Source: a virus. From it: a DNA stretch of 64,000 nucleotides. Shown in pieces: positions 28,564 to 46,340 of the stretch. The notes below the pieces were generated by a model that saw nothing but the letters and a program-made list of their open reading frames with translations, was not told the DNA's origin and did not search any database. A program made the translations under genes and the position numbers. The stretch lies in IMG/VR virus record IMGVR_UViG_3300031652_000001, one strand, 5' to 3'. Every line of letters begins with the position of its first letter. The first letter of the stretch is position 1.

Positions 28564-28731
28564 TGGGCCAAGCAGGATTCGAACCTGCACAGATGCTCTG
28601 ATGTTGGTATTCCCTGGTACGCGACTGTCCACCGATAGAATACCCATTTTCCAGTCAGCTTCAACACGCATCGATTCAGCATCTTATCCAACACGTCACC
28701 AGTTAGCGTCTACCTTTTCCGCCATTGGCCC
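28564..28731 (-). ncRNA. tRNA-Leu-like RNA with ~90 extra nucleotides in the anticodon/variable region
   Basis: Perfect acceptor GGGCCAA/UUGGCCC-A, Leu-type D arm GGCGGAAAAGGUAGACGC and perfect T arm GCAGG-UUCGAAU-CCUGC; 168 nt long. Confidence 0.7.
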
Positions 28732-42788: not shown

Positions 42789-43288
42789 CAGACATTCTTC
42801 AGACCTTTTGCCTTTCTCTCTCTCGTCATGGCCCTTCTCACCGCAGCCAAATCTTTTTTCAGTAACCGGATTTGCTCTTGAACCGTTATGACCTCACCAT
42901 CTTCTTCATCGTCTTCAAAATCACCTGCCAAGTATCTCACCAAGTCTTTCTCTTCTCTCTTCAATGCCTGAAGTTTAGTGGTAAACAACCACTCAAACTT
43001 ACTTGGCCTCAAAGAACCATCGTCGAGAAGATGAAGGACAGTCTTGTCGCTTTTGGATATACTTTTAGCCCAACCATAGTCGAAATGCTTCTTCGATTTC
43101 TTGACCCACGTATACTTATTTTTGCAAGTAAGATATGCACGTCTTTCATACGATCCAGAATCAGGATACCCAGGTATCGGCTTGAAATCACACCGACGCT
43201 GGATGCTTGTGATGATCCACTCCCTAAAAAAAATCTTCCCTTCATCAACAAGCGCACTCCAAAAAGACTGTCCAACTTTAGGTTTCAT
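42788..43288 (-). CDS. Hypothetical protein
   Basis: ATGA-coupled to 43285-43839. Confidence 0.6.
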   Translation of the reverse strand: MKPKVGQSFWSALVDEGKIFFREWIITSIQRRCDFKPIPGYPDSGSYERRAYLTCKNKYTWVKKSKKHFDYGWAKSISKSDKTVLHLLDDGSLRPSKFEWLFTTKLQALKREEKDLVRYLAGDFEDDEEDGEVITVQEQIRLLKKDLAAVRRAMTRERKAKGLKNV

Positions 43289-43839
43289 TCATTACCACCC
43301 TCTCTATCCGAAATTTTTCCAGGTAACAAATCGGCCGGATCTACTTTAGGACGCTTCTTAATATCCCCTTCTGAAATTTTTGGGATTCCACTTTCCACGG
43401 GAGCAAAAATAGGGACTTCTCCCTTTTTGATTTTTCTGAGTGTCGTTATCATCCGGCTCCCAAGAATAATGCCCTTTTCCCAGCTTGCTCTACCATCAGG
43501 AGTCAAAAGATTTAAATCTGTACGGTTCAGTACTTGTTGAGACCGAAGAACTTTCCTAAACGCAGTCTTCCTGGTTCTTTCTGCATAGTCTGGATTCGAC
43601 TCATCTTCCAAAATACGTATTCCCAGCCTTTCGCATTTACATACCAATAATCTACCTGTCTGATCGGAAAGATCCTCTATCTTCTTTGCCAATTTAACTG
43701 TCTCTAGTTGATACCTAGGAAAATCATCCTCTCTTTTTACACCGTGTATCTCTTCACATCTACTTGGAGAAATCCATTCTCCTTTTTTTAAAAGTGTAAC
43801 ATCAAGAGGATAAAACTTGACTTGCTGTACAACATCCAT
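43285..43839 (-). CDS. Hypothetical protein directly downstream of the pentamer array (candidate accessory protein)
   Basis: Starts ~20 nt after the last repeat; basic, helical C-terminal half. Confidence 0.65.
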   Translation of the reverse strand: MDVVQQVKFYPLDVTLLKKGEWISPSRCEEIHGVKREDDFPRYQLETVKLAKKIEDLSDQTGRLLVCKCERLGIRILEDESNPDYAERTRKTAFRKVLRSQQVLNRTDLNLLTPDGRASWEKGIILGSRMITTLRKIKKGEVPIFAPVESGIPKISEGDIKKRPKVDPADLLPGKISDREGGNE

Positions 43840-43860
43840 TGAAAAACCTTTTGTCTTTAA

Positions 43861-44815
43861 TTAGACCTCAAGCTTTGAAGTGATCTCTACCCGAGGTACC
43901 CTTCCGATCCATTCCTTTCCATTCCCTTCCTCTCCCATCCGTTCCACTCCGGTCCGTTCCTCTCCAATCCAGTATTAGACCTCAGGCTTTGACATGATCT
44001 CCACCCGAGGCACCCTTCCTCTCCATTCCTCTCCATTCCTCTCCGTTCCAATCCGTTCCCGTCCGATCCGCTCCAGTCCTATCCCGTCTCAGACCTCAGG
44101 TTTTGAAGCGATCTCCACCTGAGGTACCCTTCCTCTCCCTTCCGATCCATTCCCTTCCGCTGCTTTCCGATCCCTTCCGGTCCGAACCCGTCCCTTCCTT
44201 TACAATCCCTTCCATTCCAGTCCGATCCCATGTTAGACCTCAGGCTTTGACATGATCTCCACCTGAAGTACCCTTCCTTTCCTTTCCGGTCCTTTCCCAT
44301 CCATTCCTCCCCAATCCAATCCAGTCCTTTCCACTTCATTCCCCTCCAATCCAGTCCTTTCCACTTCATTCCCCTCCTATCCAATCTCAGACCTCAGGTT
44401 TTGACATGATCTCCACCTGAAGTACCCTTCCTCTCCTTTCCCTTCCAATCCTATCCGTTCCAGTCCGTTCCCTTCCCCTCCAATCCAGTATTAGACCTCA
44501 GGCTTTGAAGTGATCTCTACCCGAGGTACCCTTCCTTTCCATTCCGGTCCTATCCGTTCCAATCCTGTCCGCTCCCGTCCGATCCGCTCCAGTCCAATCC
44601 AGTCTCAGACCTCAGACTTTGAAGTGATCTCCACCCGAGGTACCCTTCCTCTCCCTTCCATTCCTCCCCTGTCCAATCCATTCCATTCCACTCCGTTCCT
44701 CTCCCCTCCAGTATTAGACCTCAGGCTTTGACATGATCTCCACCTGAAGTACCCTTCCTCTCCCTTCCTTTCCTATCCTTTCCTTTCCATTCCATTCCTC
44801 TCCTATCCGGTCCCT
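43861..44815 (-). repeat. Array of 8 units: (NN-GGA)12-22 tract plus 44-nt hairpin repeat (candidate guide-RNA array)
   Basis: Repeats start at 43861, 43973, 44087, 44231, 44385, 44489, 44603 and 44712. The tracts hold 14, 14, 20, 22, 12, 14, 13 and 12 phased pentamers; 114 of 121 have exact TCC (GGA on the minus strand). Confidence 0.95.
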
Positions 44816-44833
44816 TTAATCACCATTTTACTG

Positions 44834-45412
44834 CTAAAGAAACTCGACGTTGAATCGACCAAATCTCGGTCGATAATCACCGACCCCCTTGTCGCCGCAC
44901 ACCTCCAAAATTGACTGAAGCTTTTGCTCCGTAAATGGAGCACCATAGGCAATGACACCCTCCGCAACCCACCCCTTGAACATCGGCCTCGTCCTAAGGA
45001 CCTTCTTCTTGGCGACGTTGACCAAACACTGATACATGCAGTTCATGTCACCATATCGTTTTCTGGGATCCGACGGACCTTCGAAATCCGTCAACTTGAA
45101 GGGCTCCTCCACCAAAATTGTCTGAACGGTTTCGGCTTTCGAAATCTTCGCCTCATTCCATCCTGCATCTCGTATCATCGCGACAATATGATCCACCGGA
45201 ATGATGTATTTGCCATCGCCATCCATAATGAGACCACCAAAAAATTCCGCCTTGGCGATGGCCTCATAATTCTCGGAAGTTTTCTTTTTTCCACCACGGT
45301 CTGTCTCTTCCTTCACACGTTGTGATGCCGGATCCATTGGATTCGCCAATCGATTGTTGTGTTGAAGATACGCAGAAAGCCCAACAAATCTCACCCTCAT
45401 CTCTTTTTTCAT
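44834..45412 (-). CDS. RAMP/Cas7-like small protein heading the pentamer array
   Basis: N-terminal strand VRFVGLSAYLQHN, RTRPMF..W, and C-terminal Gly-rich loop GVGDYRPRFGRFNV, as in RAMP-fold proteins; the stop is 18 nt from the array. Confidence 0.7.
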   Translation of the reverse strand: MKKEMRVRFVGLSAYLQHNNRLANPMDPASQRVKEETDRGGKKKTSENYEAIAKAEFFGGLIMDGDGKYIIPVDHIVAMIRDAGWNEAKISKAETVQTILVEEPFKLTDFEGPSDPRKRYGDMNCMYQCLVNVAKKKVLRTRPMFKGWVAEGVIAYGAPFTEQKLQSILEVCGDKGVGDYRPRFGRFNVEFL

Positions 45413-45472: not shown

Positions 45473-45916
45473 TTATTCGACCTTTTCTCTATCTTCCCCC
45501 ATTGAAGCTCTCACCACCATAGCTTTCGCTATTTCTCCGTGCTTTGCTTCACAAATCCTAATTGCCTCATCAATGTGACTCATCGCCTGAATCAACGTCG
45601 TAGCATTAGCTGAATTCACCCATGTCTGAAGGAGGCTAGCAAGCAATCCCTTTTGCTCATCAAGAGCACCACAAACCCCATGAAGACTCAGTCCAAGGCT
45701 CTTTGTTTTTTCGACATCAGAAAAAACAACTTTCTCAAGACACTGAATCGGCCACCAACCAAACCTGGTTCCGTAGAGCTCTTCACCCTCATCGGATTTT
45801 ACATCCATAACATGACAAGTTTCACCAATACTGTTTCGGGTCACAGGACGTTCAACGATCCACTTTCGAGTGAAACTGTTATCAACAATCCTTACCAGAT
45901 CCCCTTTTGACGGCAT
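45473..45916 (-). CDS. Hypothetical protein
   Basis: GGGAG RBS before MPSKGD. Confidence 0.55.
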   Translation of the reverse strand: MPSKGDLVRIVDNSFTRKWIVERPVTRNSIGETCHVMDVKSDEGEELYGTRFGWWPIQCLEKVVFSDVEKTKSLGLSLHGVCGALDEQKGLLASLLQTWVNSANATTLIQAMSHIDEAIRICEAKHGEIAKAMVVRASMGEDREKVE

Positions 45917-46259
45917 GATTGCTCCCTTCATACGCCCGGATGAGAGCTGAAAAGATATCGTTAATATCAGCAGGTTTGTAAACAATCTGGACACCAGGAT
46001 AATGTGCTTTTGAATCCCCCGTATGGAGGACAACCGGTATCGGAGACATCTCGACGACTCGATAACCACTGTCCTTCGTCGGACAGTCGAGGTCACTGAG
46101 AACGATATCATACTTGCCGGTCTTGATCTCGGATATACCAGCATCCGTCGAAAGCGCCACAGTAATGCTTTTCCAGTTTCTTCGCAAACACCTGACCAGC
46201 ATCCGCGCTACCGGCTCTTCATCCTCGATGACCAAAAGATTCATTTCGTTCGTTCTCAT
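45882..46259 (-). CDS. Single-domain response regulator (REC)
   Basis: LLVIEDE, DIVLSD (phosphoacceptor), VVLHTG and KP. Confidence 0.85.
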   Translation of the reverse strand: MRTNEMNLLVIEDEEPVARMLVRCLRRNWKSITVALSTDAGISEIKTGKYDIVLSDLDCPTKDSGYRVVEMSPIPVVLHTGDSKAHYPGVQIVYKPADINDIFSALIRAYEGSNHAVKRGSGKDC

Positions 46260-46302
46260 ATCTCCCCCGTTTCTTCGGGCACCTAGCCCGGCATCTCCTA
46301 TG

Positions 46303-46340
46303 AGTCTATCCATTAAAAACGCGAAGTCAAGTTCACTTTT
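46303..46340 (-). promoter_or_regulatory. Phage promoter (GAAC-TTGACT family)
   Basis: TTGACT-16 nt-TAGACT; heads the REC / RAMP-like / array operon. Confidence 0.65.

Follow-up and report, generated by a model that had tools for sequence, protein, structure and literature searches.

What is the short hairpin that recurs between two genes of this viral DNA, and on which strand does it act? The window analysed here is a stretch of 64,000 nt from the IMG/VR virus record IMGVR_UViG_3300031652_000001. It resembles part of a huge phage, with 18 tRNA matches, a tmRNA and a strong GC skew throughout; all of its genes lie on the minus strand, and no nucleotide similarity of the window to deposited phages was found. 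A 168-nt tRNA match (32.5 bits; 28564-28731) adjoins the tmRNA and represents a tRNA with a long insertion. The hairpin lies in a non-coding array of ~960 nt that separates the minus-strand genes at 44834-45412 and 43285-43839. The array consists of eight purine-rich tracts, each followed by a conserved unit of ~46 nt, and the repeated units span positions 43856-44754 on the minus strand.

Each tract contains 13-23 in-phase GGANN pentamers, counting a final GGUAC. Anticipating the probable identification made below, we number the tracts as the guide tracts of vrRNAs 1 to 8 and the conserved units as their tails. On the minus strand, vrRNA 1 begins with a guide tract of 12 GGANN units plus GGUAC (44755-44813), delimited by pentamer phase, and its tail (44709-44754; hairpin 44718-44750) was placed by alignment, pairing, a covariance model and fold energy. 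The subsequent guide tracts are those of vrRNA 2 (44646-44708; 14 units including the final GGUAC), vrRNA 3 (44532-44599; 15 units), vrRNA 4 (44428-44485; 13 units), vrRNA 5 (44274-44381; 23 units, with an in-phase exact 30-nt duplication), vrRNA 6 (44130-44227; 21 units, two of them degenerate), vrRNA 7 (44016-44083; 15 units) and vrRNA 8 (43902-43969; 15 units), the last of which has a candidate target. Tails 2 to 8, placed by alignment, pairing and the covariance model, lie at 44600-44645 (hairpin 44609-44641), 44486-44531 (44495-44527), 44382-44427 (44391-44423), 44228-44273 (44237-44269), 44084-44129 (44093-44125), 43970-44015 (43979-44011) and 43856-43901 (43865-43897), respectively; tail 8 is situated ~20 nt before the ATG of the next gene. 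Successive units are separated by an A/U-rich linker of only 7-8 nt (CUAAUACU or CUGAGACU). The first element of the array is a tract, every hairpin in the window and in the arrays of relatives is preceded by a tract, and a hairpin follows 8/8 tracts in the window, while the last hairpin has no tract after it. Tracts 3 and 7 have their 5' units in common (CT GC TC CG). The duplication in tract 5 and the shared 5' units of tracts 3 and 7 suggest that guides may diversify by duplication and recombination.

The eight units can be aligned without gaps at 90% identity. Each contains a stem of 9 bp, ACCUCAGGU / RCCUGAGGU, closed in the window by a loop of 15 nt. On the minus strand all 72 stem cells of the eight copies form standard pairs, 16 of them as G-U, in line with the minus-strand stem proposed by the first-pass annotation. 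Six of the nine pairs vary, every one via a single transition that yields G-U on the minus strand; on the plus strand only 56/72 cells (77.8%) pair, and the same 16 cells become A-C mismatches. The annotation had stated that most stem variants favour the minus strand, and the count is stronger than that, since all 16 varying cells do so. One-sided variation within a single array nevertheless carries modest statistical weight (6/6 independent columns, chance ~1/64). The predicted fold energies are -13 to -15.8 kcal/mol for the minus-strand RNA versus -5.3 to -8.7 kcal/mol for the plus-strand RNA, the latter being indistinguishable from shuffled sequences. The two inner loop pairs and the G2/G3-C/U extension predicted by RNAalifold are supported by invariant bases only, and no co-variation was seen between loop variants and 3'-linker variants in the window.

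The pentamer phase of each tract runs into the repeat (...GGAAG GGUAC CUC...), as the first-pass annotation had noticed, so that the last in-phase GG, that of GGUAC, abuts the stem. The copies of the 44-nt repeat described there, and their positions, were reproduced; its length was not, because the two to three preceding pentamers (GGAGA GGAAG) are likewise conserved and conservation thus extends over more than 44 nt. A covariance-model search of the 64-kb window returned exactly eight copies, every one of them on the minus strand.

The identity of the array becomes clear from the gene that precedes it. This gene (44834-45412, minus strand) encodes a 192-aa protein, P0001, which is a single-RRM, Cas7-like RAMP according to AlphaFold, Foldseek, BLASTP and its membership in phrog_4652; no Pfam family was found for it. 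Its AlphaFold model has a pLDDT of 94, and the best Foldseek matches are type VII Cas7, Csm3 and Cmr4 (E 3e-5). By BLASTP, residues 3-192 align over the full length with the Vipr protein of Escherichia phage SUSP1 (YP_009199429.1) at 28% identity (E 7e-27). The G-loop, GVGD(Y/W)RPRFGRF, and the RxRP thumb are conserved in P0001, and H18, R142, D179, Y180 and R181 are counterparts of the published residues that hold G1 and G2, each at least 90% conserved in 63 homologues.

VIPR is a CRISPR-like DNA-silencing system that was first described in 2026 preprints (bioRxiv 10.64898/2026.04.26.720920). According to these preprints, Vipr, a small phage-encoded RAMP, polymerises on vrRNAs made of YNNGG pentamers, in tracts of 9-16 units, and the exposed NN dinucleotides read double-stranded DNA with a one-base skip, the skipped base of natural targets falling at the codon wobble position. 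Behind every pentamer tract lies a 3' tail, both structured and conserved, which caps the Vipr filament (10.64898/2026.04.26.720920, section 6; 10.64898/2026.04.26.720927, section 6). The same preprints treat the tail as making the RNA competent for Vipr complex formation; in SUSP1 it is kept at the RNA 3' end, where it is visible in cryo-EM, it caps and registers the filament at that end, and DNA is unwound starting from the end nearest the tail.

The locus is a VIPR system in the order vipr, eight vrRNAs and a vap-like gene, because P0001 is Cas7-like and homologous to Vipr, the tracts consist of GGANN pentamers, and a vap-like gene follows the array. Other candidates, namely a CsrA/TRAP-type protein sponge, a Shine-Dalgarno decoy, G-quadruplex DNA and a centromere or origin, were dropped because the RAMP fold and the homology to Vipr had been found. 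Assignment of the accessory gene (P0002, 184 aa; 43285-43839, minus strand) is based on synteny and a family profile. Homologues of P0002 that are 33-47% identical follow vipr and the array in four relatives (L027, L028, L031 and L033). When the P0002 family profile was compared by hhalign with the gene after vipr in more distant systems, the values were 88.6% for L043, 60% for L015 and a weak 35% (E 4e-4) for SUSP1 vap1. Word-based homologue searches with P0002 recovered only P0002 itself, while exhaustive ones returned 229 distant relatives. Its model has a pLDDT of 88, and a fold search in the PDB gave no significant match, only weak rows of winged-helix regulators.

Homologues of P0001 were collected from 26 viral contigs, and in 26/26 a period-5 GG array lies on the same strand beside the gene. 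The closer relatives (54-72% identity; L027, L028 and L030-L033) have the same hairpin in their GGANN arrays, while their stems are wholly different in sequence (CCUACCC, CCCUCUG, CCCCAUA, CCUGCGCG, GCACCC, CCUUCCAG and others). When 26 hairpins were aligned with MAFFT, 93.6% of the stem cells proved to be paired and both partners had changed in 9/9 pairs; 0/500 shuffles equalled this, and pairing dropped to 23-49% if the partner was displaced by 1-3 columns. Extending the set to 42 homologous hairpins from 10 loci gave 93.9% paired stem cells and 123 cells with double changes, with compensatory change again in 9/9 pairs. The covariance model also found three hairpins outside its building set, and 16 hairpins outside the model set (in L030, L031, L032, L043, L049 and L052) each possess a complementary stem of their own. 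An all-against-all column scan for a second helix or pseudoknot detected covariation in the main stem only. The loop behaves in the opposite manner to the stem: in the 42 hairpins it is 15-16 nt long and nearly invariant, reading G-A-G-A-U-C-R-Y-(G)-U-U-C-A-A-A. The first-pass annotation had proposed folding and covariation analysis of the eight copies and of homologous arrays as a check of its hairpin, and on both counts, the stable minus-strand folds and the covariation of 9/9 pairs, the hairpin holds.

Across the 42 hairpins there are 44 G-U cells against 5 A-C cells, and 41 against 2 if only the inner eight pairs are counted, which fixes the transcribed strand. Together with the G-U asymmetry within the window and the orientation of every window gene, this bears out the proposal of a minus-strand RNA. 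The same data bear on the idea of a DNA-level element, such as a palindromic protein-binding site, an iteron, a centromere or a packaging repeat. Such an element would account for the regular spacing, the partial palindrome and the central GATC of the repeat. However, strand-asymmetric variation of this kind is absent from DNA duplex sites, the stem sequence changes freely while its pairing is kept, and the hairpin always lies on the gene-sense strand beside vipr. A DNA-level role is therefore very improbable.

Together, our results make it very likely that the 44-base hairpin forms the 3' tail on all eight VIPR vrRNAs, in an operon transcribed from the minus strand. This kind of element is already in print, and the locus in the window is a GGA, simple-hairpin variant of it. 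The first-pass annotation had suggested a 3' cap that delimits each guide; that suggestion fits the published tail architecture, as arrays start with a tract and a hairpin follows the tract.

The closest point of comparison is the type II system of SUSP1, with Vipr YP_009199429.1, vap1 and its vrRNAs (10.64898/2026.04.26.720920; 10.64898/2026.04.26.720927; 10.64898/2026.10.15.759431). Both systems are phage-encoded and comprise a ~190-aa single-RRM RAMP with a G-loop and thumb, guides of pentamers in which GG is fixed and two bases vary, a structured and conserved 3' tail of ~40 nt after each tract, and an adjacent accessory gene of ~150-190 aa, that of the window having weak profile similarity to vap1. 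They differ in the tail, which is a plain 9-bp stem with an invariant 15-16-nt loop in the window and an H-type pseudoknot in SUSP1; the tails of SUSP1 and wV8 have the pattern GUAG..GUCUCA..CUAC..UGAGAC, and our covariance model gave no match to either. Since the tail in the window is not an H-type pseudoknot and the model misses the tails of SUSP1 and wV8, a capping role is transferred to the plain hairpin by analogy. The layout is different as well. In the window, vipr and vap flank a head-to-tail series of eight guides with gaps of 7-8 nt, whereas the SUSP1 vrRNAs are separately spaced, have a conserved repeat sequence of ~40-50 nt between them and are located after vap. The tracts in the window also reach 23 units, and two of them (21 and 23 units) exceed the published range of 9-16.

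Hairpins that delimit guides are familiar from CRISPR systems. The repeat hairpins of type I-E and I-F CRISPR are kept at the crRNA 3' end by Cas6, and the hairpin described here resembles them in being a short, RAMP-associated hairpin that delimits a guide at its 3' end. Unlike those systems, the locus has pentamer-coded guides instead of contiguous spacers and shows no Cas6, Cas1 or Cas2 among the 10 neighbouring genes scanned, and the conservation resides in the loop while the stem covaries freely. Might the repeat, then, be a canonical CRISPR repeat, or else serve to terminate or attenuate transcription? Such readings would lead one to expect a stable hairpin and an array of repeat-spacer type beside a RAMP gene. 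Yet the putative spacers are low-complexity GGANN tracts with lengths in multiples of five, none of these 10 neighbours matched cas1, cas2 or any further cas family, and there was no Rfam CRISPR-DR match. More generally, no Rfam family matched the array at gathering score or at E<=10, in a search that covered ribozymes (including the hammerhead), CRISPR-DR and known sRNAs. As for a terminator, no U-run follows the stem, its place being taken by CUAAUACU or CUGAGACU, and a terminator scan of the array was empty. Both readings have only a minimal chance of being correct.

A more serious alternative concerns what happens to the hairpin after transcription. It could be mainly a processing signal, cut off or cut within by RNase III, by a Cas6-like activity of Vipr or by Vap, or it could be the 5' handle of the next guide, instead of a retained 3' cap. 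The spacing gives this idea some substance, as gaps of 7-8 nt leave no room for promoters and cleavage would be required to obtain single guides. The invariant loop could be the site of a nuclease or an assembly factor, and Cas6, a relative of Vipr within the RAMPs, cleaves at repeat hairpins. Several points speak against it, however. The first tract of each array has no preceding hairpin and the last hairpin in the window has no following tract. The SUSP1 tail is retained at the 3' end in the cryo-EM structure, a 9-bp stem is short for RNase III, and the nearest structural neighbours of Vipr are Cas7 backbone subunits and not Cas6. Taking both sides into account, we regard a hairpin that serves mainly as a processing signal or 5' handle as improbable, and prefer the retained 3' tail.

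The retained tail does not preclude cleavage nearby. The term "processing site" used in the first-pass annotation is plausible, because 7-8 nt between units leave no room for a promoter, while any role of the RAMP protein or RNase III in cleavage is pure conjecture. A scan for promoter-like or terminator-like sites inside the array found none, and owing to this and to the close spacing, a single processed precursor is the most likely source of the guides. In needing to be resolved from a contiguous multi-guide array into single vrRNAs, the locus is like the "staggered" and ribozyme-interspersed VIPR arrays (figs S18 and S19 of the preprints). It is unlike them in that no Rfam ribozyme lies between the guides in the window and each guide has its own hairpin tail, compared with the 1-nt overlap between neighbours in staggered arrays. 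Since the loop is invariant over a freely covarying stem, sequence-specific recognition of the loop by Vipr, Vap or a host nuclease is suggested.

The pentamers themselves deviate from the canonical code. Among 125 in-phase units in the window, the third base is A in 91%, T in 7% and C in 0%, so the canonical GGY third base is absent as a rule at this locus; within the clade A accounts for 66-91%. By comparison, the third base is T or C in ~90% of the units of SUSP1 and wV8, and C, T or A in the group of relatives L001-L026. Positions 4 and 5 show near-even base use, and tract lengths are multiples of five. The text of the VIPR preprints names "a related consensus", NNNGG, YNNNG, NNNNG, GAC/NN and others, whereas GGA/NN is not named in it. 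As "a related consensus" is allowed there, the GGA third base is a variant that leaves membership in VIPR intact. In SUSP1, GGY>GGA is among the disabling substitutions and was used as a loss-of-function control (VIPR preprints, 2026). Given that GGA disables SUSP1, the Vipr proteins of the GGA clade would have to differ from SUSP1 Vipr in third-base specificity. Sequence comparison may point to where: only the GGA-clade Viprs carry one extra residue in helix 1 and lack one residue directly ahead of the G-loop (P0001 residues 82 and 175-176). Helix 1 and the pre-G-loop site form the purine-excluding (pyrimidine, Y3) pocket of SUSP1 Vipr in the structure paper (VIPR preprints, 2026). The two indels thus appear to fall at the published pyrimidine-pocket sites, with the reservation that the residue numbering of the legend maps imperfectly onto SUSP1.

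The hairpin is not confined to arrays with the GGA code. The exact tail pattern of the window was found nowhere else in viral contigs, but a search of these contigs with the 16-nt loop word revealed more arrays, in L043, L049 and L052. The tail hairpin, with loop GGAGAUCACGUUCAAA, occurs there at L043:7300-7990, L049:2000-2200 (minus strand) and L052:60-640, in arrays whose pentamer third base is dominated by C and T. The arrays of L043 and L049 adjoin distantly related Vipr genes (hhalign of the L043 Vipr with the family, 99.4%), and the L052 contig is too short to show one. Because the same hairpin caps these C/T-third-base arrays, the tail class extends beyond the GGA clade. A different VIPR clade is seen at L015:5420-5990 and the other loci of the L001-L026 group, where arrays lie upstream of vipr and the third base is C, T or A. 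The tail in this clade is longer and composite, built of three hairpins: one with GCUGUUAACAGC, one that covaries and one of GNRA type, GGUG-GCAA-CACC.

We propose a mechanistic model for the locus. The operon of vipr, eight copies of tract plus hairpin, and vap would be transcribed from the minus strand. The array would most likely be made as one precursor, probably together with vipr, and be cut in the short single-stranded linker after each hairpin, which would leave a hairpin at the 3' end of each guide. Each Vipr protomer would then bind one GGANN pentamer, by extrapolation from SUSP1, holding GG(A) and leaving the two variable bases exposed. The filament would end at the last in-phase GG, that of GGUAC, directly against the stem, and the stem-loop would cap the 3' end of the filament and set its register. 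The invariant loop probably marks the RNA as a Vipr substrate.

If the guides act in this way, what do they target? When the window and the fetched loci were searched as targets, no guide scored above shuffled guides under a skip of 0, 1 or 2 nt; a 3-nt skip, used as a positive control, recovered the guides themselves. Exact-pattern scans with guide 3 gave no match in viral, metagenome or genome contigs, and those with guide 8 none in viral contigs. Under the NNx rule, however, guide 8 (43902-43969) matches a metagenome contig (L057:223-254, minus strand) at 22/22 NN bases over its first 11 units. It also matches L058:1311-1339 (plus strand), equivalent to G001:C29:57311-57339 in a Fibrobacter metagenome-assembled genome from yak reticulum, at 20/20 bases plus one more (21/22). 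By rough estimate, a 22-base match is expected by chance ~0.1 times per metagenome scan and a 20-base match about once per genome scan. The two matches fall in the same conserved 289-aa ORF, with each skipped base at a codon wobble position. The four 3'-terminal units of guide 8 are unmatched, two of them being part of the conserved repeat. The ORF stands at the end of a contractile-injection-system operon, in which genes for a VgrG-like spike, baseplate J, a CIS tape measure and an AAA ATPase precede those for proteins with eCIS-core domains. A candidate target was obtained for one of the eight guides only, and the other seven did not converge on the Fibrobacter contig. The match of guide 8 in the Fibrobacter eCIS operon is thus a lead, and it hints at the host and at an unusual class of target.

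It is tempting to speculate further, although we hold the following combination to be doubtful. The locus may carry a re-specified VIPR code, in which the third base has changed from pyrimidine to adenine through the two pocket indels. The hairpin with its GAGAUC...UUCAAA loop, common to GGA-type and GGY/GGH-type arrays (L043, L049 and L052), might be a dedicated site for precursor cleavage or filament nucleation, a step similar to that at Cas6 repeats and new to VIPR. At least one guide might be aimed at the eCIS operon of a Fibrobacter host and not at a rival phage.

The basic picture of VIPR is unchanged by these results, and the hairpin is the expected vrRNA tail. VIPR is, however, a discovery only months old with clear potential as a tool, and a natural GG-A-NN clade is of interest since this very substitution puts the model SUSP1 system out of action. 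The clade offers a ready comparison for studying how the third base is fixed by Vipr, and the two systems may prove to be orthogonal. A plain covarying hairpin tail with an invariant loop, reused across Vipr clades in tight arrays, points to an undescribed step of maturation or assembly, and the tail class provides a good handle for vrRNA annotation.

Two further observations concern the surroundings of these systems. Second or third vrRNA arrays occur in relatives, upstream of vipr or after vap (L027:7950-8330, L031:6430-6880 and L028:4630-4960), and the last guide of these extra arrays ends in a terminator-like hairpin instead of the standard tail. In the closest relatives a small response-regulator receiver-domain gene lies just upstream of vipr (L030:1095-1451 and L032:274-630). 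Its counterpart in the window is at 45882-46313, with a sub-threshold Pfam score, and the gene may be a conserved neighbour of the GGA VIPR clade.
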